NCBI RefSeq assembly: GCF_011745625.1
Contig: NW_027191458.1
Location: forward strand, 186,001-250,000
Source: Cladosporium halotolerans
Taxonomy: Eukaryota
DNA: 64,000 nucleotides
Reading direction: 5' to 3'
The first letter of the stretch is position 1. Each line of letters opens with the position of its first letter. Below the pieces are notes generated by a model, which worked only from the letters and a program-made list of their open reading frames with translations, did no database searches and had not been told where the DNA came from. Of this stretch, positions 3,156 through 29,420 are shown one piece after another. Position numbers and translations under genes: made by a program.

Positions 3156-3818
3156 TCACCTCCCCTCCGCAACATCCTTGACCCTCGCCTCAAACGCCTC
3201 AATCATCTTATCCGCCACCATCGGTGCCATCACCGCGCTCACGCTCGCCAACCGTGGCTCCGCAAACTCAAACTCAACCTTCAAGCTAACCTCCGTGCTC
3301 TCCCCCCGCGGCTCCAAACTCCACCTCGTCGCCAACCTCTTCAGCACCCTCTCATCCCTCGTCGGATCCCCCTCCACCGGCCCACGCGCACTATGATGCG
3401 CGACCTCCTCATCCGACAGCGCCGTCTCGCTCTGCCCGGCCACAGCCTCGACAACCCTCTCCGGCGCGCAGTAAACGCGGCTCCAGAAGGCCTCGCTCAG
3501 GCCGCCATTGAAGCCGATCTGCAGCTCCGCTTCCTCGGGGTAGCGCTTGCCGTCTGCGGCGGTCGGGGCGGAGGTCTTGGTCACGCGCGAGGAGCGGCAG
3601 TAGGGGATGAAGGCGCTGTAGGAGGCGACGTCGGAGATGGTCTGGTAGATGACGCGGGCGGGGTAGGGGAGGGTTCGCGAGGCGGAGATGGTTTGCGGGC
3701 CGGGGTTGGGGAGGAAGTTGGAGAGGAAGGTGCGGGTTTGTTGGTGGTGGTGAGGGTTCGGGCGCTGGATGAGTGGTCGGAAGGTGTTGAGGAAGGGTCG
3801 GAGGGTTTTGGTGGCCAT
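3156..3818 (-). CDS. COQ10: Coenzyme Q-binding START-domain protein, mitochondrial
   Basis: Arg-rich, acid-free presequence; RTLPYP..IY..ISDVASYSAFIPYC..S motif; C-terminal VADKMIEAFEARV. Confidence 0.87.
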   Translation of the reverse strand: MATKTLRPFLNTFRPLIQRPNPHHHQQTRTFLSNFLPNPGPQTISASRTLPYPARVIYQTISDVASYSAFIPYCRSSRVTKTSAPTAADGKRYPEEAELQIGFNGGLSEAFWSRVYCAPERVVEAVAGQSETALSDEEVAHHSARGPVEGDPTRDERVLKRLATRWSLEPRGESTEVSLKVEFEFAEPRLASVSAVMAPMVADKMIEAFEARVKDVAEGR

Positions 3819-4190
3819 GTTGGAGGCGTGGGGATCAGGTTGTTGTAAGTGAGATGCTGGTTCGGCTGGCGAATGAAGTGATGCTGTGTATGAATGAAGA
3901 GAAACGAATGGTGGTTTCGCGAAACAACGGCAAACAAGAGAACGCTCAAATGCTAGAGGACGGTGACGATGAAATCATTAGTCGTCGTTCTGGTGATCTT
4001 CCTCCGCAATTAAGTTCCGCAGATTGGGTTCGGGACCGGCGGGCAGATCCGAGACACTGCTTTCAGGGTCCAAACGGGCGGCGTGGGATTTGTGGAGGCT
4101 TGCGAAAGTTGAAGGAAGAAATTCCTGGCCGTTGACTCGAATCGGGCGAACACTGCAGAGAACACAAAAAGGTTGCAGTAATAGAGCAAA

Positions 4191-5387
4191 ATGGCTGAAT
4201 CAAGACAAGACGAGACAACTTTGCCTGTCAGGCAAAAGCAGCCCCGTCAACAATTGACGAAAGGAATGGAGCACATGAGGGAGTACGTGGCGATCGACGA
4301 CTCCAACAAAACCTCTCAGCAGCAAGCAGAAGAAGACGCCTACGGAGTGCCAGCAACGATCGAACCGATTCGAAAGCCCGCCACAGACTCGCAAAGCAAC
4401 CCTCAAAAGCGAAGCGACCCTTTCCAATTCGGCACGCGGTACCTGGAAGAAGGCGACGACATCTTCGCGCACAATGCGTGGGACCACGTCGAAGTCGACC
4501 CGCAGTACACCGAGTTCATCGCAGCGCAGACCATCTTCCAGCGCGAGAACCAGGTCTCTGATTTCGACAAGAAGCGGTTCAACGACAAGCCCGAGAAGTG
4601 GTGGGACAAGTTCTACTCCAACAACCAGGCCAACTTCTTCAAGGACCGCAAGTGGTTGACTCAGGAATTTCCTGTGCTCGCCGAAGTGACCAAAGCCGAC
4701 CATGGGCCCTGCACCGTCCTCGAAGTCGGCGCCGGAGCCGGCAACACCGCCTTCCCCGTCCTCGCGATGAACTCTAACCCAGGCCTGAAACTGCACGCAT
4801 GCGACTACAGCGCCAAAGCCATCGACGTGATCCGCTCGCAGGAAGCCTACACATCACAACAGGAGCCGAGAGTCCTCCAGGCAGATGTCTGGGACGCAGC
4901 CGGTGAGGTTCTTCCACCAGGCCTGAAACCCGGATCCGTAGACTTGATCGTCATGATTTTCATCTTTTCCGCGCTGTCGCCCGATCAATGGGCGCAGGCG
5001 GTGCGCAATGTGCACACTCTGCTCAAGCCTGGCGGTGAGGTGCTCTTCCGCGACTACGGGCGTGGCGACCTGGCCCAGGTGCGGTTCAAGAAGGGCCGGT
5101 ATTTGGACGAGAACTTCTACGTGCGCGGCGATGGCACAAGGGTGTATTTCTTTGAGGAAGACGAGTTGCGCGAAATCTGGTCTGGAAACATCCCTGCCAA
5201 CTCAAAGGATGAAGGCGAGGCTCCAACGAAGGTTCAGGTGCCGGGGCTGCAAGTGTTAAATCTGGCGGTTGATAGACGCATGCTGGTGAACCGTCAGAGG
5301 AAGATCAAGATGTACCGTTGCTGGATGCAGGGTCGCTTCCGGAAGGCTTCAAACGAGAACGAGAACGGAGAGGCTGCCAAGGCATGA
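4191..5387 (+). CDS. TRM140: tRNA N3-methylcytidine (m3C32) methyltransferase, Trm140/METTL2 family
   Basis: HNAWDHVE, WDKFY..N..NFFKDRKWL..EFP, SAM motif LEVGAGAGNT, FRDYGRGDLAQVRF, YVRGDGTRVYFF, MYRCWMQ. Confidence 0.93.
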   Translation: MAESRQDETTLPVRQKQPRQQLTKGMEHMREYVAIDDSNKTSQQQAEEDAYGVPATIEPIRKPATDSQSNPQKRSDPFQFGTRYLEEGDDIFAHNAWDHVEVDPQYTEFIAAQTIFQRENQVSDFDKKRFNDKPEKWWDKFYSNNQANFFKDRKWLTQEFPVLAEVTKADHGPCTVLEVGAGAGNTAFPVLAMNSNPGLKLHACDYSAKAIDVIRSQEAYTSQQEPRVLQADVWDAAGEVLPPGLKPGSVDLIVMIFIFSALSPDQWAQAVRNVHTLLKPGGEVLFRDYGRGDLAQVRFKKGRYLDENFYVRGDGTRVYFFEEDELREIWSGNIPANSKDEGEAPTKVQVPGLQVLNLAVDRRMLVNRQRKIKMYRCWMQGRFRKASNENENGEAAKA

Positions 5388-17490: not shown

Positions 17491-18521
17491 GCAGCGCTTG
17501 GCCGATGACGACGGTGATGAGCAGCGCAGCCGGCTGAGGGAGGCGGATGGAGCGAATGCAGCGAATGGATGTGTTGCTCTGCCAGCCTTCCAGCCTCGGG
17601 CGCGCTCATCCCTGCGTGCCGGGCTCGTCTCGTCTGTGTTGCCGCAGCCCAGAGAGGCCCAGAGAGGCCTGCCGTATACACCATGCGACCGCCACCTCAG
17701 CGCGCCGGCTGCCTCAACGCCGTCTTCCTCCCTCACCAGTCCTTGCATACCTTAGTTGCTCACACTACCTGCCGTCTCCCACCAGGAACCCGCGCACTCG
17801 CCACGCACGCCAGCCAGTACCGACCTGGGTAGTGCCCTGCCTAACCTCACGATCAACACCGCGGCGCCACCAGCAGCCCCGCGGGCGCCTTCCGCACACG
17901 CACCGCCCCCGTCAGCCCGTCAGCCCGTCAGGCTCGCCATTCATTCCCGCCTGCTGCGCCCACCCCAAGCCTTTGCACCTCAGGGTCGCAGCTTCTTGCC
18001 TGCTTTTGCTTCTCAGCGCCCGCCTCAGCCCCCCTCGGCATCGCCACACCACGCCGCTCGCTGGCCACCACCACCGCGCTTGCTGCGAGCGCACCGACTC
18101 CTCCACCACGCACTGATCCTCCGCCCACACCACTGCATCACTCTGCGCGCATCTCGTCGTCTCAAAGTCTCAAAGCACACGACACGCCCGCGCCCCCAAC
18201 CGCCTCGACGTCATCCGCGAGACGTGCTATGCGCCGGCCCACCACCCGGTCACTGCGCTCCCATCCATACACTCTCACCCAGATTGCTAGCATTCCACAC
18301 TGCCGCTGCCCCGTTTAGCCGCGCGCGACGAGGTGCGTTCTCCGCCGCCCTTGTGGCGACACCATGCACTGCCACGCCACCGTCTTCCCATCTCCAGCCT
18401 GCCGCCAAGCCCATTCTTTGCGCTGCCGCTGTATCGAATGCCCGTCGCTGACCTGACCACGCGACTGCAGACTCCATAGTGACACCACCGCGCATTCCAC
18501 CTCCCATGTCGACCTAGCCCT

Positions 18522-20567
18522 ATGGCAGCAACTCAGCGCGCCGTTTCCCCTCCCTCAAACCAACCGCCCGCGACCAACCCTCCTAGAACGCCGACCTCAT
18601 TCCCTACCGACTCACACGCGCCGACCACGACATCCACCGGAAAGGCAGACACGCTTCGTCCGAAGCATTCCAACCTGGGACCCACCTCTAACCCAAGAAG
18701 CCTCTCGCCAAATACAGCGACATCGAAACCGTCTCAGCCTCGCCCGCATTCTCGATCTCCCGTACCTTTGACCGGCGCAGCCGCAGTCGCAGAGGCAAAA
18801 AGAAGGGACCATCAGGAGCAGCAGCAAAAGGCCGCGGCAGAGGGCAAGCGGACGAGTCGGAACCCTGCCGTGCAGGCCATGCAAGCCCTCATGGGTGGAG
18901 GAGGCATCAGCAGGCCGTCCGACAGTCCCGCGCCGAACAAGCTCAGCGAGCCCATGCGCAAAGTCGCGGAGAAAATCACCATTCCTTCACAAACGCAGGG
19001 CGATTCGTTACATGCGAGTCCGACAAGCATGTCCAGCTATGGATCTGTGGAGTCTACCGGACTAGGTGCAGCCATGACTGCGACAGCCAGCAATTTCCCC
19101 GAAACTTCGGGACAGCACAGTTACGTAGCCGAGCCGGCCGACATGGAGTCTGGCCAATACCCGGAGAATGGACACTTGAACGTCAACAGCGACGATGGAG
19201 CCAAGGCGTTTTCATATCCTGGTCCGCCACCACAAGAGGCAGAGAAAGAAGCGCCTTCTCGAGGAATGAGTCTGCCTGGATACGGCCAGACGAGTCCGAA
19301 ATCGCCGGCCTCGTCGACTAAGCGTCACAAGTGCCCGTACTGTTCGACAGATTTCACCAGACATCACAATCTCAAAAGTCATCTGTTGACTCACAGCCAA
19401 GAAAAGCCGTATGTGTGTCAAACGTGCAACGCACGATTCCGACGGCTTCACGACTTGAAGCGACATACAAAACTACACACCGGAGAACGACCCCACACAT
19501 GCGATAAATGTGGACGACGATTCGCGCGAGGAGACGCCCTGGCTCGCCACAACAAAGGACCCGGAGGATGCGCAGGTCGAAGATCTAGCGCTGGTGGCGA
19601 GGACGATTTCGGCATGGACGGCGTTGATTATCCCGGCGACGAAGATGACGACGTCGATATGGACCCTCACTCCCGTCGCGTCAGCGAACCAAGCCGCAAG
19701 CGAGCACACCTCGAAACACCTCAGGATGTTGAGCGACAAGTATACCGCCAGCACTCCAGCACATACCCTCCACCCGCGATACCCCCACACGCACGTGGCG
19801 ACATGGCGCCACCACAGGTCGTGCACCCTAACGCCGGTGCCGCCACTTCACCTCGAGATATGTCAGGTCAACCAAGCCCCGCAGTAAACTCCTACTACAA
19901 CGGATCCTGCGCCCAGGTCTTCCCGCAACAAGGCCCCATGATGACCGAATCCCCCAAACCCCTCTCGCCAGGCCAACCCTCCGACCAACACCGCCTGAGC
20001 GTCACAGACCCCAACGCCGCATCCTCAGCGCGCAACCGCTCCCCCTCCCTCGCCTCCCAACTCCAACAACAACACCTCTCCCGCGCCAGCGCCGGCGGCG
20101 GCGGCCGCACACCCCCCCAGCACCCCCCCGCCCAACAATTCCCCCCTCACCCCGCCCAGCCCCAACTCCCGCCCCTCACCGCCTCCTCCCAGCGCCCCTT
20201 CGCAAACCCCGGCCCCTCCTCCCTCCACCACCAGCAGATCCCCCCCGCCTCCGCTTCCAACGCCGGCAGCATGTCCTCCCACGGCCGCTCGTCCGGCAGC
20301 AGCCTGCGCGACGTGCTGGGCTCCGGCAGCGGCAGCGGCGCCTCGGGCCCGGAGGCCCCCGGCGCGCCGGGCCCGGATATCTGGGCGTACGTGCGCGGGC
20401 TGGAGGCGCGCTTCGGCCGCATGCAGGACGAGTACGAGCTGCGGATCTCGAGGATGCAGGAGGAGATTTTCGCGCTGAAGGCGCAGGTTGCTGGTGGGGG
20501 AAGCGGGGTGGGTGGTTATGGTGGTGGTGGGGTTGGCGAGGCGGCGGCAGCGATGCAGAGGCATTAG
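18522..20567 (+). CDS. C2H2 zinc-finger transcription factor with three fingers; Crz1-related finger array but not clearly Crz1 itself
   Basis: CPYCSTDFTRHHNLKSHLLTH-SQEKPY-CQTCNARFRRLHDLKRHTKLH-TGERPH-CDKCGRRFARGDALARH; P/S/Q-rich flanks; C-terminal coiled coil (YVRGLEARFGRMQDEYELRISRMQEEIFALKAQV). Confidence 0.92.
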   Translation: MAATQRAVSPPSNQPPATNPPRTPTSFPTDSHAPTTTSTGKADTLRPKHSNLGPTSNPRSLSPNTATSKPSQPRPHSRSPVPLTGAAAVAEAKRRDHQEQQQKAAAEGKRTSRNPAVQAMQALMGGGGISRPSDSPAPNKLSEPMRKVAEKITIPSQTQGDSLHASPTSMSSYGSVESTGLGAAMTATASNFPETSGQHSYVAEPADMESGQYPENGHLNVNSDDGAKAFSYPGPPPQEAEKEAPSRGMSLPGYGQTSPKSPASSTKRHKCPYCSTDFTRHHNLKSHLLTHSQEKPYVCQTCNARFRRLHDLKRHTKLHTGERPHTCDKCGRRFARGDALARHNKGPGGCAGRRSSAGGEDDFGMDGVDYPGDEDDDVDMDPHSRRVSEPSRKRAHLETPQDVERQVYRQHSSTYPPPAIPPHARGDMAPPQVVHPNAGAATSPRDMSGQPSPAVNSYYNGSCAQVFPQQGPMMTESPKPLSPGQPSDQHRLSVTDPNAASSARNRSPSLASQLQQQHLSRASAGGGGRTPPQHPPAQQFPPHPAQPQLPPLTASSQRPFANPGPSSLHHQQIPPASASNAGSMSSHGRSSGSSLRDVLGSGSGSGASGPEAPGAPGPDIWAYVRGLEARFGRMQDEYELRISRMQEEIFALKAQVAGGGSGVGGYGGGGVGEAAAAMQRH

Positions 20568-23034
20568 GATTGTTGGTTGTGGGTTGCTGGCGTTGATCAC
20601 CCAGGGGAGGAGAGGGAGGAGTGGAGTGGAGTGGGTATGAGACTGATGAGGCGGCTGGAGCTGGAGATGGGGAAACGTAGCGGTGGGGTTGTGAGGCTTG
20701 TCTGATGGACGAAGATGGGATTTCGAGGCGGACGCTTTCGGCGCCGGGCTTTTATGATTTGTCCCCGGAGAGCGGACGTCACAGTCGGCGGAGCTGCTCT
20801 TGGGTTTTATTGAGGGCGTTGGGTCGGGTGTAATTGTACGCGTGCGGCTTATCGCGCGCGGCACGCCACTCGACGACTTGTCAGCCGCGCGGCTCTTTCG
20901 GAAGAAGACGCGAAGACGAAGACCCAAAAACGCACCACGTCACGTCAGCTCCGGCCGAGCGCAACACCAGAGGAGGATTTCGAACCCCCCTTCATCGAAC
21001 CACCGCGCAAGTCGCCTTCAGGATGACGAACATCACGTTTATCCATCGCCATCTCCGCCACAATCACCGCCTACCATCACCCCAGACACCCAACCAAGAC
21101 GCGGTGAAAAAAATCACGAGAGCATTGAATACGCGGCCTTTCCATCCCTGAAACAGCGGAAGGAACCGAAGCGCAGCGCTCACTCATCTGGCTTTCGCCA
21201 ACATCAATCGGCCTTCTCTTCAAAAAAAAAAAAGAAGAGCAAAGAAGCAAGCGCTTCCCCAGCGCCCCCATCGCCCATGCTTCCTCACTTCAACGATTCG
21301 TGTTATTTCTTTTCCTTCTTTCGTCACGACCAAAAAAAGTGTATTATATAAGGTAGCTAGCTAGCGCTCTCGCTTTTCCTCTTGCTCTTCTTCTTTTTGC
21401 TCTTCTTCTGCGACGTTTTTGATTCCCCACGGAGTGCAAGGCAGGAAGGGTTCTTTTGGGTATCGCGATGAGATGAGATGAGGAGGGACGAGGAAGAGGG
21501 GTGCTCCGGTGGATTGGGCTGGATTGGAACGGGCTGGGGTTTGGCATTGTTGGTTGGGTTGGTTGGGTTGGGTAGCAGAGCAGAGCAGAGTAGTAGTGTT
21601 TGAATGATGATGTTTGTTGGTACTCCGTTTCCATTGCTTGTCGCATGTCTTTTCTAGTAATGGCAATTGTTCGTTCGGGTGAGGGGGGGGTTTGTCTTGG
21701 ATTGTGGAATAGTGGTCTTTTATTTTTATTTTTATTTTTATTTCATTGTTTTCGGGTTTTTTGGGGGCGCCGCAGAAGCAAAGGAAGGGGTTCGTTCGTT
21801 CGCGAGGACTTCTTTGACCGCGAGTCCGGTGTTCGATGAGGTCGGAGCGAGCGGTCACCTGACTACTCCACCTACCTACCTACTCCCCAGCAGTGGGTGG
21901 CAGTCGACTGCCACGAACTTCTCCGACTGCAATGGATGAACGACTGGCTCTTCAGGCGATGGGAAATCGTGATCAAACGATGAGTTCGATCGTGGATGGA
22001 GTGGAAGACGTGGTGGTGTGGCGAGGGTGTGAAAATGGCATGGCGAGGGCGGCGTGCTTTGAGACATTTGTTTTGATTTGAGCTGGCGGGGTTTGTTGTT
22101 GCTGTCTAGGCTACGCTGGCTGATGGGGGTTCGTGTTTCTTTGGAAGAGATGGAGTCAACGCGGATACGCTTCGTGAATAGGGTGTTGTGGTGGCTATAG
22201 TGTGCTGCTGTTTAGTATTCGCGATCGCTAGGGTCGTTGCTACTGCTCCACTGGATGTTGTTGTCGATCGCCAAGCTTTGGAGGCTGCGTGGGTCTGAGA
22301 CATCCATGTCTCGGTTCTTCCGCAACTTCACTTCCCGCATCTTTCACGAATCTACATACCTAGGCACTTGCAACGAAAGTGTCGATTCGCCTAACTATCA
22401 ATCCACACTCGAATGGGTATGCGCACTCGCCCGCCTTATGATTATTGCCAGCCGCTCACCATTGGCTGCAGTTAGCCCAACGGTTCTGGTTGCTGGAGTG
22501 GCAGGCGTACCGAAACCATAAAATCGCCAAACCCCCCGGACGAGCCACCCTGACGCCCGAGCGCCCAACCATTACTGAAACGGTATTTCCTAAATGGACT
22601 AGCCCCCCAGTCTCCCTCCAACAATGGTGAACACATTTCGCACCCAAGCATCACGAGAATTGCTTGATCGTTCTGCAACATGCACCCGCCTCTCTGTTCC
22701 AGCATTGCGTTTCCCCATATGGACATCCAAGGCCAGCCACGGAGAGTGTATATGATTGCGCGTCTGCCTTGCAGATCGCCTGGATCCTATTCTGGAGCGT
22801 TGGCCATCCGCCGCCGCGTTGGCCATTCTTCACGATGGCTTCAGACCGGTGGCTGACATCCTGTAGGTGGTTGGTATGCACAATGTAGGTGAATATAAGG
22901 CCGTCCATTTTTTCTTTCTCAATCCCGGTCAGCAAGCATCTCCTTGTCTCTCAAACGATCTCATCGCTATCTCTCTCTCCAATCGATTGGCTCTTGTCAA
23001 GATATCCATTCTTGGGCATTCGATATCCCCCACA

Positions 23035-23877
23035 ATGGCTCCAGCTTCCCAACACCTGCTGGCCCTCCTCGCCTTGGGCCTCCTCTGGTCCCCTCAACAC
23101 GTCAACGCCCACGGCTACATCAAAACCCCTCCCTCCCGACAAGCTTCCTGCGCAGCCGACAAAGTCGACGAGTCCAACTGCGGCGGCGTAACCTACGAGC
23201 CCCAATCCGTCGAAAGCCCCAAAGGCGCCCCCTTCGACACCGACGTCGGCACGCAAATCTGCAACGGCGGCGGCAGCCGCTTCTCCGAGCTCAACACGCC
23301 CGGCGCCGACATCTGGCCCACGACCTCCATCCCCGCCGCGCAGGACCTCGCGCTCGAGTGGAAGATCACCACCGCGCACAAGACCCAGAGCTGGGCCTAC
23401 TACATCACCAAAGCCGACACGCCGCTCGACCCCTCGCAGCCCCTGACCAAAGACTCCTTCGAGACGGAGCCTATCCTCCTGCTCGACACCAACCACGACG
23501 CCCCGCCGCCCTCGCTCACGCACACGGTGCCCGGCGACGCCCTCGCCGGCCGCTCCGGCTACGCCGTCATCTACAGCGTCTGGTCCATCGGCGACACGGG
23601 CAACGCCTTCTACAACTGCGTCGACGTCAACTTCGAAGCCTCCGAAGCAGAGCAGCCCGCGAGCAACACGACGACGACCGCAGTGCCAACGACGATGGCG
23701 ACGTCCACGCGCGCCATGACCGGCACCGCAGTGACGGGCACCGGTCTCCCGGGCACGGCGGTGTCGGCGACGGGCAGCATGAGCACCGCGACGGGCGCGG
23801 CGAGCGTCGGCTACTCGGCGACGGGCAACTCGACGGTCCTGACGCTGTCGGGGAGGAAGTTGAGGAAGTACTTTTGA
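23035..23877 (+). CDS. Secreted AA10 lytic polysaccharide monooxygenase (CBP21/chitin-binding type) with Thr-rich tail
   Basis: 25-aa signal peptide ending VNA, mature His1 (HGY, codon at 23110), YEPQSVE, WKITTAHKTQSWAYYITK, SQPLTKDSF and VWSIGDTGNAFYNCVDVNF, all colinear with Serratia CBP21 motifs. Intronless. Confidence 0.92.
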   Translation: MAPASQHLLALLALGLLWSPQHVNAHGYIKTPPSRQASCAADKVDESNCGGVTYEPQSVESPKGAPFDTDVGTQICNGGGSRFSELNTPGADIWPTTSIPAAQDLALEWKITTAHKTQSWAYYITKADTPLDPSQPLTKDSFETEPILLLDTNHDAPPPSLTHTVPGDALAGRSGYAVIYSVWSIGDTGNAFYNCVDVNFEASEAEQPASNTTTTAVPTTMATSTRAMTGTAVTGTGLPGTAVSATGSMSTATGAASVGYSATGNSTVLTLSGRKLRKYF

Positions 23878-24821
23878 GTTGCGGGGACGGGGAGTTTGTA
23901 GATGTTTTTTTCGTTTCCTTTCTTTTTTCAGAGCGTCATACCCATTTGAATCGCCTGGTTGCATTTTTCTCGGAGTTTGGGATTGGGACGGGAGTCAAAA
24001 AAAAACGCCAAAGAATGGATGGATGTCCATGTTTGCGGTACGTGTTTGGCCGGAGGGAGTTTGGTGGATTTTTGACTGCGAGATGGAGCTTCAAGAGCCG
24101 GTATCGAGTGGCGTTTGGGGTTCATCGGTGGATTGGGATAAGACAGATGTAGAGGAGGCATAATAATGAGACATAATAACCTTGTGCACGATCTCGAATG
24201 CACGATCTCGAATGCATCATTCCTCCTTGGACCAGCCTCTCACTACGTGGGCGAATTCTCCATGAACTATGTCTGGCAACCGTGTAGATCAGCTAGTAAT
24301 CCAGTTATATAACCTACGGAGCAACGATATAAACTTGAAAGCCGCGATAGCGCGGATTTCCCAATTGGGTTGTTGAGGAAAGTGGGGATCGTCACACGTC
24401 AGCGGATGTTGAAGTGAAGTGCGTCTCAGGCAGCTTGCGAGCGTGCCTTAAGCATCTCAAAAGCTCAAGGCAGCGTGAACTTCCTAATTAGGCAGTTGTG
24501 AGAAGAGCGGGGACTGTGACATGTCACGGGTTAGTGAAGTGAATATGGCCTTCCACGGGGCTCAAGTCAGGTACGCGTCTTTGTCACGGAAACTGGTATG
24601 CTTTTGGAGTCTACGTGGGGGTTTGACTGCCCTGCGGCGCCTATTCGTTTCACCGTCTAAGGCGGAGAAATGGAAGGACGAACGGACAATCGTGCACAGG
24701 AACGTCTGAGTCAAGGATTGCGAGTATAGGGTGTCATAACACTTTTAATCATGATATGTAATCATAGCTTTCTAGCTGTGCAATGATCGTAACAGTACTC
24801 AAAAAATCACAAAGCTTTTTC

Positions 24822-25838
24822 TTAAAGCTCGATGACGACCTTCTTGGCAGAGACACCCTTCTTGTTAGTGTCGCAGCCCTTCTGCACATTCTCCAGCCCC
24901 TTGCCAACAACAAGCGGCTCCGGCACAAGCCTGAGCTTACCCTGCTGCAGCGCCTCCTGCACGTAGCTCTTCCAAACGGGGTGAGTCGTCTCGGAGATAC
25001 CAAAGACGTTGCCGACCTTCACAGCATCCGGCACATTCTGCGGCCCAGGCAGGGTCACAGCGAGGTTGCCCGCGCCGCACTTCTCCATAATCGGCACGGT
25101 GATCTGGTAGCTGTCCTGGTTGGAGATGGTGTCGTAGACGCCGATGAAGTTGCGCGGCTCGGCGGCCTTGACGGCTTTGGCGACGTCGTCGACGACGCTA
25201 GAGGACTTGTAGTCGAACGCCTCGCTGGCGCCCAGCGAGCGCACGAAAGCGTGGTTGCGCTCGGATACGATGGCGATGACGTGCGCGCCGGAGGCGACGG
25301 CGAGCTGGACTGTCAGGGCGCCGACGGAGGAGCTGGCGCCGTAGACGACGAGGGTCTTGCCGCTCTGCGTGGGTGTGAGAGTAGGGTACTCGAGACCCAT
25401 GAAGCCGTTCTGGCGGGAGCCGTAGAGGCCTGCGGAGGCGGTGTCGAGGGCGAGGGGCAGGACGGAAGCCTCGGAGAAGCTGGCGCTGTCTGGGATCTTG
25501 CCGACGATGGCGGCGGGGGCGGCAGTGTAGAGCTGGAAGCCGCCGTGCTTGGGGTCCTGGGTGGCGAGGCTGATGGCGTGGGCAGAGACGCGGTCGCCTT
25601 TCTGGAGATGCTTGACGTTGCTGCCGACCTCGACGATCTCGCCGGCGACGTCGCAGCCCAGAACGATGGGCCACTTCTGGATAAACATGCCGGTGTCTTG
25701 AATCTTCCAGTCGACCGGGTTGATTGCGATGGCGTGGTTCTTGATCACGACCTCGTCCGCATTGGCCTTGGGCATGTCAGCCTCTGCGACACGGAGGGTC
25801 TGGCCCTTGCCGTCGAGCCATGCTGCTTGGTTGGACAT
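24822..25838 (-). CDS. Zinc-type alcohol dehydrogenase-like / enoyl-reductase (MDR superfamily, CipB-like)
   Basis: MSNQAAWL, KNHAIAINPVDWKIQ, P.VLGCDVAGEIVEVG, VVYGASSSVG Rossmann motif, C-terminal GVSAKKVVIEL. Confidence 0.9.
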   Translation of the reverse strand: MSNQAAWLDGKGQTLRVAEADMPKANADEVVIKNHAIAINPVDWKIQDTGMFIQKWPIVLGCDVAGEIVEVGSNVKHLQKGDRVSAHAISLATQDPKHGGFQLYTAAPAAIVGKIPDSASFSEASVLPLALDTASAGLYGSRQNGFMGLEYPTLTPTQSGKTLVVYGASSSVGALTVQLAVASGAHVIAIVSERNHAFVRSLGASEAFDYKSSSVVDDVAKAVKAAEPRNFIGVYDTISNQDSYQITVPIMEKCGAGNLAVTLPGPQNVPDAVKVGNVFGISETTHPVWKSYVQEALQQGKLRLVPEPLVVGKGLENVQKGCDTNKKGVSAKKVVIEL

Positions 25839-27161
25839 TTTGATTGTTGTTGTGGGTTCGTATCGATTGAGTCGTGGGGCTTCTTCAAGCTGTAATTTGG
25901 AGATTGGTTTTTTGTTTTTGATTGAGATCGACTGGAAGAAGAGGCAAGAGTCGATGATAGAACTCAAACGACGATGTGATGTGGAGTGGATTGTAAACTG
26001 TAGCAAAACGAAACGATGATGTCAGTCCGTCAATGGCAGGATTGTTCGAATGGTGGAGAGCCGACCGAACGAAGGGGACACCGTTGGACTTTATGAAGCT
26101 TGATCCAATATCACGCTAAGCCTTTGCTCGTATATAAATTTCGCTTTGTCAATTGGGTTTTCCGTCGTACCGAGTAATCTGCGGTGAGCTACCGGACTTT
26201 GCATCCTTTGAGCGGACTGGCACGTTGCTTTGTCAGAAAGCCAGCCTTCGGCGCGGAACAGACACCGCAAGAGGTAACCGAGCGGGTAGATTCGGCGAAG
26301 TCGATGGAATATACCCCAAAGCCATTGTGCTCAAGACGGACAACGGCGATTAATTGCACCGATATGCCGTATGTTGCAATAGAGAGCGCAAAAACTTGTG
26401 TGCTGCTCACTCAGTCCTGTGAGTTCAAGTTTCTTGCGGTGTCAAGGGTTAGGGTTCAATCTGCTCTAGCTATTTTGTGGCTGATGAAGGTGTCACGGTG
26501 TAACATCAGGATTCAAGTGTGCTTTGAAGTGAAACATTGCAATGAGCTGAGTTTCTTCACAAACCCAACGAAGTGAAAATTAGTTCGTTCACTGCACCCC
26601 TGGATGGATGTGGCCGGAGTGATCGTGACAACCATGCATCTTCTGTCCTTGACTGAATGAGGGCGTATCTCCATATGCCCCATGTACCTGTTATACATTG
26701 GTTCTTCGACCGACCCCCCGTAGAAACGCATACTCAGTAAGGATAGCAAACATGTATTCACTGATTGCATACTGCATCGATCACAGTTGGCTGCATTTCA
26801 GCAGCGACGCACAAGTTCGTTCATTCATGACCGCATCAGCTGGCGCGATTCTGTAGACCAGTCTTCACTTACATGAAGCACGTGCCCCGCACTTAACCTT
26901 GCATGGCTTTCAGGGATGTCGTCAGGTGCTCGAAATGCTGCTTGAGCTCACATGTCGCGCGGGGTTGTTCAAAAGCATTCATGTGCTCGACGGGATACTT
27001 CACGGACCCCATCACTCAAACGACACACTTTATCAATTCTCTACCCCCATAAGCCACTGTGCTACATCACAACACCACCGGAATCTCTACGCTTCCTCCT
27101 CTCGCTTACCCCATAGTCGGCGCTTCGATTTTCATCAAAGCGCTTCGACTTCAATCAGACC

Positions 27162-29420
27162 ATGGCCGACACCCTCGCTCTCCACTGTCGGATCGCCGTC
27201 CTGGAAACCGAGCTTCGCCTGACTAAAGAATCGCTTCGCCAATATCAAAACGGCGGCATCCAACTCGTAAACCTCCTCGCCCAAAACAGTCAAGGTGCCC
27301 CATCAACCAACGTCCTTTCCGCGGAGCAGAAAGAGATCGCCAACCTTCGCTTCCAACTCCACGATGCAGGCGAGCGCATTGAAGAATTGGAGAGGTCGCT
27401 GAAGACTGTGAGAGGAGCGAAGGATGTGCTGTTGAACCTGAGGAAGAAGGAGCGAGCTGATGCAACCAAGAAAGAGGCAAACCCTGATGGAGATGTTGGC
27501 TGGAATACTTATGCGGAGTCTTGCGCTGAAAGAATCCACGACGGACCAGAGATCGAAGATTCAACAAGTCAGGTGCCGAACTATGGACGGAAACAGCAAT
27601 GGGCTCGCGATCAAGCCAACCTCAAGTCTGCTGATACCAAGTCTGGTCGCGCGGACCCACCACCCGCTACTATCTACTGCGGAAAGAAAGTTGACTACTT
27701 TTCAACAGCTCCATGGAGCTATGGAAACAAGGAGAAGGAAGTGTCTGTCGCTCGCCAGGAGTCCAAAGTCGCCACTCCTGAAGAAGCCCCCATCCAGGGC
27801 ACCAGGATCGAAGGCTCCAATGGTCAAGTCTTCTGGATCACCCCAGCTTCGCCTGACGAGACGGACTGGATGGAAAGAGCACCTGCAAACGGTGCTGAAT
27901 CTCCGCGTACCACTGCCCAGAGATTGAAGGATTGGTTTGCTCCTGACGAGCACAATCACCTTCTTGAGCTTGCCTGCGACATCGAGGACAAGGAGAAAGA
28001 TGAGTACGAGATATACTGGGAAGATTATGCCATCGCGTTCAACGGGCATTCTGAAAAAGAATGGAGAACGTACTATGAAACTGTGATCCGCCCGGTATAT
28101 CTGGAGGAGCTTGAAGGAGCTAGGCGTGATGAGGAGGTCGCCAAATGGAGGGAGTTCGCGGAGGACAAGGAAGACGAAGGTGAAACGCCAGAGCCTCCCG
28201 AGGGCGACAATGACGTGGAAAAGGAACAAGCAAGCTCCTCGGCTGATCACGAGGGCGTTGCTGTGACTTGCTTGCTTGACATGAACGACTTCACGTCCAG
28301 CGGTAAATGCGTCGGAAGTCCGGATACGGGATTGCAATCCCCAATCCTTCCCAATCACAGTATGATCGAGGTTCCAAGCGGCAGACACGGAGAGCCCCAA
28401 CTCGATTCCACTGACTCTCGCACTCTCGATGTCGTGGCGGAAGACTCCAGGCCCGGGGCCGATGAAATCGTCCAAGACAACGAGGTTGAAGGGTCCGAAG
28501 GCGTTCAAGCACCCACCAAGCCATCAGCCACTGGCCCCACGACAACCATGGACCCGGAAAATGTCACTTCGCAACCCTCAGTCATCGAGGAAGGCACAGC
28601 CCGCCCAATCCACATTCGCTCCTACAGCAAAGAGGAAGTCAAGCGCCAGGAGATCTCCCGCCACGACTCCAAAGCGTCCGTCTCCCCTGCTGCCCCCCAA
28701 ATCCCCGTTCAACCCAAGAACAAGCTCTCAGACTCTATGCACGCGCCGAAAGACCCCGCCTTGCCTAGACCCAGAGCACCCCTCCCATGGCAACAATTCG
28801 TCTCCCGCAACGGCGGCTCCCCGGACCCCACCCTCCGCCGCACGATCCTCATCACCAACATCCCCACGAGCACCGCCCTCACCACCGTCCTCGACAACAT
28901 CCAAGGCGGCCGCCTCCTCCGCATCCGCTACGTCGACACAGCAAGAATGCAAACCCTGCCCCCGATCGAAACCAACACCGTCATCGTCGAGTTCATCGCC
29001 AACATCGACGCGCGCCGCTTCTGCGCCTCCTACACCAAAGACTCGATGACTCTGCTCTCTGGTGGGAAAACGCACACCGCGAACGTAAGCCTGATCCCCA
29101 CGGCCAGCAAGCCGATCCCCTTCTTCCTCTCCCGCGGCTTGCGCGAGGAAGGATGGTCGCGTGTGCTTTACGTGCACGGCGACATCGGCGCTGAAGAATT
29201 GGTCGGGAAGATCGAGATGGCGTGGGGTGCGCCGAGGCGCCCTTTGAGGACCAAGGAGGAGAGTGGGCTGATGACGCTCGAGTATACGGCCGTGGAGGAT
29301 GCTGTGAGAGCGTTTGAGGTGTTGGGGCAGGAGCCGGCGGTGGAGGGGATGGGGGTAGGCTTTTTGCCGGATCCGTGTGCGATCGCGAGGGTGGTTGAGG
29401 TTGGTGGGGAGGGTGAGTGA
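27162..29420 (+). CDS. Hypothetical protein: N-terminal coiled coil, central Myb-like helix-turn-helix, C-terminal RRM-like region
   Basis: 752-aa intronless ORF with RIAVLETEL coiled coil, YWEDYAIAFNGHSEKEWRTYYETVIRP, and RRTILITNIP...VLDNIQGG...VIVEF (RNP2/RNP1-like). Domain calls made by eye. Confidence 0.75.
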   Translation: MADTLALHCRIAVLETELRLTKESLRQYQNGGIQLVNLLAQNSQGAPSTNVLSAEQKEIANLRFQLHDAGERIEELERSLKTVRGAKDVLLNLRKKERADATKKEANPDGDVGWNTYAESCAERIHDGPEIEDSTSQVPNYGRKQQWARDQANLKSADTKSGRADPPPATIYCGKKVDYFSTAPWSYGNKEKEVSVARQESKVATPEEAPIQGTRIEGSNGQVFWITPASPDETDWMERAPANGAESPRTTAQRLKDWFAPDEHNHLLELACDIEDKEKDEYEIYWEDYAIAFNGHSEKEWRTYYETVIRPVYLEELEGARRDEEVAKWREFAEDKEDEGETPEPPEGDNDVEKEQASSSADHEGVAVTCLLDMNDFTSSGKCVGSPDTGLQSPILPNHSMIEVPSGRHGEPQLDSTDSRTLDVVAEDSRPGADEIVQDNEVEGSEGVQAPTKPSATGPTTTMDPENVTSQPSVIEEGTARPIHIRSYSKEEVKRQEISRHDSKASVSPAAPQIPVQPKNKLSDSMHAPKDPALPRPRAPLPWQQFVSRNGGSPDPTLRRTILITNIPTSTALTTVLDNIQGGRLLRIRYVDTARMQTLPPIETNTVIVEFIANIDARRFCASYTKDSMTLLSGGKTHTANVSLIPTASKPIPFFLSRGLREEGWSRVLYVHGDIGAEELVGKIEMAWGAPRRPLRTKEESGLMTLEYTAVEDAVRAFEVLGQEPAVEGMGVGFLPDPCAIARVVEVGGEGE

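Follow-up and report, generated by a model that had tools for sequence, protein, structure and literature searches.

The stretch of DNA analyzed here, 64,000 nucleotides of Cladosporium halotolerans contig NW_027191458.1 (positions 186,001 to 250,000; hereafter the window), holds at 23035..23877 of its plus strand a complete and intronless coding sequence for an AA10 lytic polysaccharide monooxygenase (LPMO), a single open reading frame (ORF) of 280 amino acids plus a TGA stop at 23875-23877. AA10 LPMOs have long been treated as bacterial and viral enzymes. The reading favored in this work, at a probability of roughly three in four, is that the gene encodes a secreted, copper-dependent, chitin-active and C1-oxidizing AA10 LPMO of the CBP21/SliLPMO10E type, which an ancestor of Cladosporium would have gained through horizontal gene transfer (HGT) from a bacterial lineage.

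The protein is made up of four consecutive parts, all encoded on the plus strand. A signal peptide, read from the sequence, covers residues 1-25 (23035..23109), with the hydrophobic core LLALLALGLLW and V-N-A at positions -3 to -1; cleavage after VNA is predicted to leave His26 as residue 1 of the mature protein. It is followed by the AA10 catalytic domain at residues 26-200 (23110..23634), supported by Pfam, structure alignments, an AlphaFold2 (AF2) model, Foldseek and column counts. Next comes a variable linker rich in Ser, Thr and Ala at residues 201-239 (23635..23751), which holds an N-T-T sequon, lies in gappy alignment columns and is predicted to be disordered; the conserved C-terminal tail at residues 240-280 (23752..23874) carries an N-S-T sequon and then, at its end, the basic motif G-R-K-x-R/K-R/K-x-F. 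Within the catalytic domain, the codons of the histidine brace lie at 23110-23112 (H26) and 23377-23379 (H115), and that of the axial Phe192 at 23608-23610, in the motif DTGNAFY. Further landmarks are the YEPQSVE surface loop (residues 54-60), W183, D187, N190 and two Cys pairs, 39/49 and 76/195.

A first-pass annotation of this DNA had drawn the ORF as 23035..23640. Its start at ATG 23035 stands; its end does not, as the stop lies at 23875-23877 and 23640 only ends the catalytic domain, and the 80 further residues of the linker and conserved tail had thereby been missed. The motifs it had named are all present, namely the signal peptide before H26, YEPQSVE at 54-60, WKITTAH with His115 and DTGNAFY with Phe192. 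The ATG at 23035 sits in the context CACAATGGC, and the MAP... start is kept in 17 of the 19 aligned orthologues, the other two being N-terminally truncated records. An in-frame ATG is present upstream at 22876; it is unlikely to be the start, since the MAP... start is conserved while upstream extensions vary among orthologues. An identical protein, likewise of 280 amino acids, is found in a public annotated genome, on a contig of 1,015,135 bp. The frame is open from ATG to stop and requires no intron, as had been claimed; however, this is weak evidence here, because the adjoining genes for an alcohol dehydrogenase (ADH) and for TRM61 also read in one frame.

Catalytic domain, active site and tail

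Family and fold are established, well beyond a chance resemblance. The Pfam family LPMO_10 (PF03067) matches residues 26-198 over its full profile (1-183 of 183) with an E value of 1.5e-38 and 133.8 bits against a cut-off of 23. In a sequence search of the PDB, all 29 matches with E <= 1 are AA10, CBM33 or fusolin-type proteins, the best being GbpA (9e-31), the Streptomyces lividans structure 5ftz (8e-30), the Listeria LPMO 5l2v and CBP21 (1.4e-29); the chitin-active set thus lies near 1e-30, compared to 1e-3 to 7e-6 for the cellulose-active CelS2, TfAA10A and ScLPMO10B. The AF2 model was computed from 127 diverse alignment rows and reaches a mean predicted local distance difference test score (pLDDT) of 82, exceeding 93 in each ten-residue block from 31 to 200, whereas the 19 close orthologues alone gave a mean of 40.

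When the model is compared with known structures using Foldseek, the best match is CBP21 (TM score 0.92, root-mean-square deviation 1.8 Å, 38% identity), followed by BtLPMO10A, SliLPMO10E, GbpA and more AA10s; entries titled as chitin-active (GbpA 8gul/8gum and 5aa7) fall within the top 15. Chitin-active structures occupy ranks 1-16 (E 5e-19 to 2e-15), whereas the cellulose-active CelS2 and T. fusca AA10A appear at ranks 24-26, the E values for CelS2, TfAA10A and ScLPMO10B being 1e-11 to 2e-10. AA10 and fusolin proteins account for all of the top 43 listed matches, and AA9, AA13, AA16 and X325 structures come at E 6e-5 or worse. The AA10 assignment of the first-pass annotation is therefore upheld, as the best matches by Pfam, PDB search and Foldseek belong neither to AA11 nor to AA16.

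The catalytic residues are likewise established. In the alignments, H26 coincides with the first residue of the mature chains in the crystal structures 5ftz, 5l2v and 2bem, and its position holds His in 78/78 aligned rows; the H115 column is His in 76/78 and the F192 column Phe in 77/78, both matching their CBP21 equivalents. The axial residue is Tyr in AA9, AA11 and AA13, and Phe in AA10. Residues identical to CBP21 when aligned are H26, H115, F192, Y54, E55, Q57, S58, E60, T112, W183, D187 and N190, and all of these are invariant in the 15 rows of the Cladosporium clade; the roles of the chitin-surface residues and of the second-sphere Glu are presumably those they have in CBP21. Two residues before the second His, Thr113 (codon 23371-23373) falls in a column that varies within the Cladosporium clade (Ala in seven, Thr in four and Val in four of the 15 rows) and is Ala in 36 of 37 rows of the actinomycete clade and in all 11 outgroup rows; this conserved AA10 Ala is taken to be Ala112 of CBP21.

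These data also bear on the idea of a derivative that has given up catalysis and is secreted to bind chitin or copper, for example shielding chitin against plant receptors or scavenging copper as the LPMO-like X325/Bim1 proteins do. The Ala-to-Thr change beside the copper site would suit it, as would a second Pfam match, to BIM1-like_dom, which remains below threshold (22.3 bits against a cut-off of 27). Two relatives introduced below, P0123 and P0124, have lost the second His (Arg and Pro, respectively), so that the AA10 lineage can evidently drift from catalysis. However, the region of the BIM1 match is covered by a much stronger match to LPMO_10, and AA10 structures come far ahead of X325 ones in the ranking. 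Both His residues, the axial Phe, the second-sphere Glu60 and the CBP21 surface set do not vary in any of the Cladosporium rows, and selection on the gene is strongly purifying, leaving a loss of catalysis improbable.

The C-terminal region differs from the catalytic domain in being largely without predicted structure: pLDDT is below 50 across residues 218-254 (disordered), and the strands proposed for the tail are of low confidence (pLDDT 53-64). Residues 240-280 nonetheless contain 17 invariant columns among 19 orthologues, in contrast to the gappy and poorly conserved columns of the linker. The tail is devoid of Cys and matched no Pfam family. Homology to the tails of Ustilago-type AA10s was considered and rejected, as hhalign gave a probability of 0.1% and an E value of 0.49, equal to the reversed control; the only likeness between the two is an Arg/Lys cluster. 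P0122, another relative described below, likewise ends in a basic cluster.

Selection was estimated by pairwise Nei-Gojobori comparison of the window gene with two metagenome orthologues, L001 and L002. The ratio of nonsynonymous to synonymous divergence (dN/dS) is 0.06-0.11 in the catalytic domain; in the least saturated pair, L001 and L002 (dS 0.82), it is 0.11 for the linker and 0.08 for the tail. Synonymous sites are saturated between the window gene and either orthologue (dS >1.5). Within the genus the gene is old, and purifying selection acts along its whole length, including the tail.

A parallel for such a tail is found among fungal AA9 LPMOs. In the portion of Tamburrini et al. 2024 (PMC10990093) that was available, disordered AA9 tails are described as commonly ending in a positive patch, and a basic X283 motif together with a Cys as mediating dimerization. 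As presented in that portion, AA9 enzymes with X283 share with the Cladosporium AA10 the architecture of a secreted LPMO with a Ser/Thr-rich disordered tail and a conserved positive end motif; they differ in that the catalytic family is another one and the motif, RxHAR, is preceded by the dimer-forming Cys, whereas the Cladosporium motif is different and has no Cys. As the tail resembles fungal AA9 tails, it is read as a fungal-style addition made after the transfer. By this analogy, it probably serves localization or self-association, such as dimerization, at the cell surface.

Distribution and phylogenetic position

Orthologues were sought by a word-indexed protein search and by an exhaustive search of 1.84 billion representatives. 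The word-indexed search returned 29 clusters at 57-99% identity, followed by single-domain AA10s of Kitasatospora and Streptomyces at 43-48%. The named orthologues of high identity come only from C. fusiforme, C. inversicolor, C. sp. NU13 and C. allicinum, which presumably span the three main species complexes of the genus, and are deposited as 'hypothetical protein'. The exhaustive search gave 745 representative clusters with E <= 1e-3; between Cladosporium and the bacteria it placed only the sequences P0122 (54%), P0123 (48%), P0124 (44%) and P0128 (39%), and next after these came Ustilaginomycotina (Violaceomyces and Kalmanozyma) at 35-39% identity. A second homologue search, with P0122 as query, brought up only the Cladosporium clade at 50-54%, with bacteria and Ustilago coming after it. 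In the ESM Atlas, only generic AA10 clusters were matched for these four sequences.

P0124, besides its altered second His, is also without Trp183 and Asn190. P0123 and P0124 may be non-catalytic LPMO-like proteins of a eukaryote-looking organism.

The window's TRM61 identifies the host as a Cladosporium or a very close relative of that genus. It is 78% identical to its counterpart in C. fusiforme, 74% to that in C. inversicolor and about 60% to those of Fulvia, Zasmidium, Cercospora, Hortaea and other named Dothideomycetes. No AA10 orthologue was found in named ascomycetes outside Cladosporium, though many Dothideomycete genera appear in the TRM61 search. On the available names, the gene is accordingly not widespread in Pezizomycotina, its named orthologues being confined to the four Cladosporium species; a wide distribution following the species tree had been set out at first pass as what would speak against transfer.

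This distribution is the chief difficulty for vertical inheritance from an ancient eukaryotic AA10 that was lost in nearly all other fungi, as dozens of independent losses would be needed and no named orthologue occurs in the many Dothideomycete genera that TRM61 retrieves. AA10-like genes do exist in fungi as distant as Cladosporium, Ustilaginomycotina and Agaricomycetes, and the more careful of the two trees described next sets the Cladosporium plus smut group beside the actinomycete clade and not inside it, both of which speak for such an ancestry. However, the derived Cys76/Cys195 pair is common to the fungal sequences and one bacterial subgroup only, and that subgroup sits within a much larger bacterial radiation (the 745 representative clusters). 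Vertical descent from an early eukaryote is thus considered highly improbable.

Phylogenetic position was taken from a careful tree of 78 rows (L-INS-i alignment, LG+C20+F+G4; supports given as UFBoot/SH-aLRT). The Cladosporium clade is recovered at 100/97, with P0122 at 98/87, and with P0122-P0124 and P0128 at 100/99, the stem of this last group measuring 0.65 substitutions per site. This Cladosporium group is joined at 95/78 to eight Ustilaginomycotina rows, which include UMAG_05439 of U. maydis, and the pair is sister, at 97/82, to a 40-row clade in which every named row is an actinomycete except two nested Agaricomycetes. The Cladosporium group lies within a 67-row clade supported at 95/88, in which the remaining named rows come from Actinomycetota, Ustilaginomycotina and Agaricomycetes. 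An independent character, the Cys76/Cys195 pair, gives the same picture: 67/67 rows of this actinomycete-plus-fungal group have it, as against 0/11 outgroup rows, and 5ftz has Cys at both positions, CBP21 at neither.

A quick tree of 115 rows, with SH-aLRT supports, unites the Cladosporium clade and P0122-P0124 at 88, with P0128 unresolved beside them. Here the Cladosporium group falls inside a 97-supported group with actinomycete AA10s that bear CBM5/12, and the Ustilaginomycotina fall outside. For the transfer proposed at first pass, a position inside the 95/88 actinomycete/fungal clade is recovered, and nesting within bacteria is seen in the quick tree only, the careful tree giving a sister relationship. 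On these grounds, the catalytic domain is assigned to an actinomycete-type AA10 subfamily, for which transfer from bacterium to fungus appears by far the most economical direction.

A separate observation concerns the Agaricomycetes. Psilocybe cubensis (P0047), Athelia sp. (P0333) and P0316 are nested at 100/100 among Micromonosporaceae-like sequences, and because they nest apart from the Cladosporium and smut clades, AA10 has entered fungi at least twice. In the Psilocybe cubensis protein, Ala replaces the axial Phe. An example of the bacterial subgroup nearest the mushroom AA10s is seen on L003, a 2,159-bp actinomycete contig, where an AA10 with CNGG and NAFYNCVDV motifs follows a histidine kinase gene.

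The same trees carry the evidence for a less direct route for the Cladosporium enzyme, in which the same enzyme passed from fungus to fungus after one acquisition, or descended from a dikaryan ancestor with many losses, and had its basic tail from the start. The union of the Cladosporium group with the Ustilaginomycotina in the careful tree (95/78) favors this route, and both groups combine a signal peptide, an AA10 domain and a Ser/Thr-rich tail ending in an Arg/Lys cluster. Approximately unbiased (AU) tests gave p 0.06 for all fungal rows as one clade, so one all-fungal clade is not firmly rejected. On the other hand, the tests gave p 0.41 for the Ustilaginomycotina apart from the Cladosporium group, an alternative costing only 3.8 log-likelihood units, and the quick tree parts the two by a branch with 97 SH-aLRT support. 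Both groups sit on long stems (0.65 and 0.20), inviting long-branch attraction; their tails are no more alike by hhalign than a reversed control (0.1%); and the Ustilaginomycotina have N at the D187 position in 8/8 rows, compared to 0/59 other ingroup rows. The Agaricomycete AA10s are clearly a separate entry, placed with full support among Micromonosporaceae-like sequences, and because of them repeated transfer is known to happen. Indirect entry is therefore held to be unlikely, though it is the foremost of the alternatives.

A related and tentative suggestion goes further. The Cladosporium proteins and P0122, P0123, P0124 and P0128 might form a eukaryote-adapted AA10 lineage sharing a single origin with the smut AA10s, in which one domesticated, basic-tailed AA10 moved between distant fungi and diversified, non-catalytic members included; the tail would then be a new short linear motif for wall tethering or dimerization. 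This too is judged doubtful.

Genomic setting and composition

The gene is integrated among host genes. Upstream lies a C2H2 zinc-finger protein ORF at 18483..20567 on the plus strand (Pfam zf-H2C2_2 and zf-C2H2), and downstream lies the zinc-type ADH, a single-exon gene for 338 amino acids at 24822..25838 on the minus strand (Pfam ADH_N and ADH_zinc_N). An identical ADH protein is encoded on the same public contig as the identical AA10 protein. Around the AA10 gene, Pfam thus recognizes a RhoGAP+PH protein, the C2H2 protein, the zinc ADH and TRM61/GCD14; farther away in the window are a glycogen debranching enzyme, a CCT chaperonin, UBP, glycerol-3-phosphate dehydrogenase, a P-type ATPase, GT34 and MFS transporters. 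No chitinase and no other LPMO was found in the 64-kb window. Eukaryotic genes are therefore present on both sides, in keeping with the host-type flanks described at first pass.

Two side observations are made on other ORFs of the window. Between ADH and TRM61, a 767-residue ORF at 27117-29420 (plus strand) has no Pfam match at E <= 1e-3, and its GC content at third codon positions (GC3), 0.66, is ordinary for the host. A polyketide cyclase/SRPBCC-type ORF at 3159-3974 (minus strand) adjoins a methyltransferase ORF at 4185-5384 (plus strand); the two might belong together as a small gene pair with a secondary-metabolite or lipid-related function.

In composition, the AA10 gene matches its surroundings. 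Its GC3 is 0.90 and its fraction of C-ending codons 0.60, with 0.86 and 0.58 in the adjacent ADH, and its relative synonymous codon usage (RSCU) correlates with that of its neighbors at 0.87, the neighbors correlating among themselves at 0.80-0.86. The host-like composition claimed at first pass is thereby borne out in GC3, C-ending bias and RSCU alike.

Bacterial contamination or a chimeric assembly would account for the bacterial affinity of the catalytic domain, which is its only support. It is contradicted by the eukaryotic genes surrounding AA10 across the window, by the eukaryotic signal peptide, the Ser/Thr linker and the host codon bias, and by the recurrence of the gene in several independent assemblies and in metagenome contigs with fungal neighbors. 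In addition, a genome-type assembly contig of 70.9 kb, in an independent format, spans the region. Given the flanks, the codon usage, this contig and the independent assemblies, contamination is excluded, and the first-pass argument from flanks and composition is justified. Around the gene, a search for repeats and for scars of mobile elements gave nothing beyond short matches at chance level.

Hints of transcription come from runs X2, X4 and X15, whose contigs have transcriptome-like statistics and are of unrecorded library type; small shares seen in air, dust and urban metagenomes were left out of this evidence. RNA-like contigs cover approximately 22634..24180 (plus strand), a possible transcript with a short 5' untranslated region (UTR) and a 3' UTR of about 300 nt. 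In X15, one 1,526-nt contig at depth 110.7 lies over 22634-24155, beside a 6.8x contig. X2 and X4 give about 50x over 22948/23014-23690 and 23-40x over 23924/23968-24180/24120; neither has cover at 23690-23924, a gap that is not interpretable. The contigs are colinear with the gene, with no joints, and hint at an unspliced transcript of about 1.2-1.5 kb. A repeat containing AATAAT is found at 24155-24179. At 24185-24212, immediately beyond the 3' limit that the RNA-like contigs seem to mark, is a perfect 14-nt tandem duplication, TGCACGATCTCGAA x2.

Gene order around AA10 is less stable than the gene itself. The C2H2-AA10-ADH block, whose synteny in relatives had been raised at first pass, is not conserved in L002, a second species with a 69% identical AA10; on this 12-kb contig the orthologue lies between a Ste24 CAAX protease and a DUF7580 gene, and only AA10 was matched between contig and window (blastn against 10001-36000; tblastn with the L002 ORFs over all of the window). 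AA10 and TRM61 share a contig in C. fusiforme and C. inversicolor, where they are 119 and 221 locus tags apart, respectively. In close relatives, the cluster members for AA10, ADH and TRM61 list equal longest contigs (59,616 and 12,912 bp), and the AA10-ADH-TRM61 linkage appears to be kept only there. This arrangement is consistent with vertical descent along a single chromosome and extensive intrachromosomal shuffling, as is typical in Dothideomycetes.

Proposed mechanism and place among fungal AA10 enzymes

Taken together, these data lead back to the preferred reading of a chitin-active AA10 LPMO acquired from bacteria. In the proposed mechanism, removal of the signal peptide after VNA would expose His26, whose amino group and imidazole would, together with His115, hold one copper ion in a histidine brace, under which Phe192 would lie. 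Docking on crystalline chitin would take place through the flat face with Y54, E55, Q57, S58, E60, T112, D187 and N190, and the reduced copper, with O2 or H2O2, would oxidize C1 of an N-acetylglucosamine unit, breaking the chain and opening the chitin to chitinases. Historically, the catalytic domain would have entered an ancestor of the genus Cladosporium from a bacterial lineage whose nearest living relatives are actinomycete AA10s, and would have been inherited vertically within the genus since. After the transfer, the gene would have taken on the codon usage of its host and gained a eukaryotic signal peptide, a Ser/Thr linker open to O- and N-glycosylation and the conserved basic tail. The biological role may lie in remodeling of the fungus's own wall, as for the AA10 of U. 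maydis, or in an attack on the chitin of fungi or insects.

That the transfer from bacterium to fungus is old and ameliorated, as the first-pass annotation had put it, is well supported by the occurrence of the gene across the genus, the dS above 1.5 against the window gene and the host-like codon usage.

Several points weigh against the reading. Thr113 is a deviation beside the predicted copper site, albeit apparently a small and local one, and the case for chitin specificity and C1 chemistry is made by similarity to characterized AA10s. The evidence of expression comes from contigs whose library type is not recorded. High GC3 would be expected of an actinomycete gene as well, so that composition by itself does not decide the matter. 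The trees disagree, with the Cladosporium group sister to the actinomycete clade in the careful one and nested in the quick one; because the careful tree does not nest it, the donor genus cannot be named, and because that tree joins the group to the Ustilaginomycotina, the bacterial origin may be shared with theirs. A single clade of all fungal AA10s is only borderline disfavored by the AU test. The restriction to Cladosporium is known from named records, and only about one database protein in four has a name. Finally, PMC6909477, in the part of its text available, names AA10, with no further detail, as one of the LPMO families that other ascomycetes encode or express.

Of the known systems, the AA10 of Ustilago/Mycosarcoma maydis (UmAA10, UMAG_05439) is the most informative comparison. 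The accessible portion of Yao et al. 2023 (PMC10617569) presents it as the first characterized fungal AA10, active on chitin and on fungal cell-wall chitin, with a disordered tail; a tree of nine fungal sequences, all from Ustilaginomycetes, accompanies it, and HGT is suggested. On this partial account, UmAA10 resembles the Cladosporium protein in its signal peptide, single AA10 domain and long, disordered, Ser/Thr-rich and basic-ended tail; the two also share the His brace, the axial Phe, the Cys76/Cys195 pair and the actinomycete-type subfamily. However, UmAA10 (P0307) is only 33% identical to the window protein across the alignment they share, with its relatives P0126 and P0127 at 39% and 35%, and it differs in having N at the D187 position, a tail that is unrelated in sequence and contains Cys, and a basidiomycete smut as host.

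Among bacteria, the closest proteins are the 195-residue AA10s of Kitasatospora and Streptomyces (P0031-P0038), of which seven rows are 43-48% identical with E values down to 1e-42; an Amycolatopsis protein (P0037) is at 42%. SliLPMO10E of Streptomyces lividans (5ftz) aligns end to end (1-172). These actinomycete single-domain AA10s share with the Cladosporium enzyme both Cys pairs and the loop lengths around PKG...C, but their signal peptides are bacterial, and linker, tail and glycosylation sequons are all absent. CBP21 (SmLPMO10A of Serratia marcescens, 2bem) has an identical YEPQSVE loop and equivalent His, Asp, Asn and Phe positions; it has Ala and an Ala/Val-type residue in place of the Cys76/Cys195 pair, is without a tail and belongs to the gammaproteobacterial outgroup in the tree.

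The Agaricomycete AA10s (Psilocybe cubensis and Athelia sp.) are, like the Cladosporium protein, bacterial-type AA10s in fungi, for which HGT has been proposed in the portions of the literature consulted. They differ in their separate entry near Micromonosporaceae-like AA10s bearing CBM5/12, in a shorter loop after PKG and in an altered residue 190. As far as its available text goes, Busk and Lange 2015 (PMC4424831) found AA10-like genes in 2/79 fungal genomes, those of U. maydis and Galerina marginata, and proposed HGT; similarly, the available part of a report on Mycena genomes (PMC11293592) notes an AA10 cluster and possible HGT. The fungal AA10 cases found in print are all basidiomycete. 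A full-text literature search found no AA10 described in Cladosporium or another named ascomycete, though supplementary tables of carbohydrate-active enzymes, which lie outside such a search, may list counts.

As fungal AA10s and their origin by HGT are already published and accepted for basidiomycetes, the general picture of LPMO biology is unchanged, and the ascomycete host, the conserved novel tail and the relatives lacking the second His add to it modestly. Cladosporium species are among the commonest airborne and phyllosphere molds, and some parasitize other fungi and insects. The gene adds an ascomycete case of the cross-kingdom acquisition of a predicted chitin-oxidizing enzyme and shows what domestication would have involved: a signal peptide, a linker with glycosylation sequons, a basic tail and host codon bias. 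It would also offer a tractable system for the function of a chitin LPMO in an organism that builds its own wall of chitin. In filamentous fungi, the N-terminal His of native LPMOs is methylated, and the Cladosporium protein raises the question of whether a bacterial-type AA10 receives the same modification.

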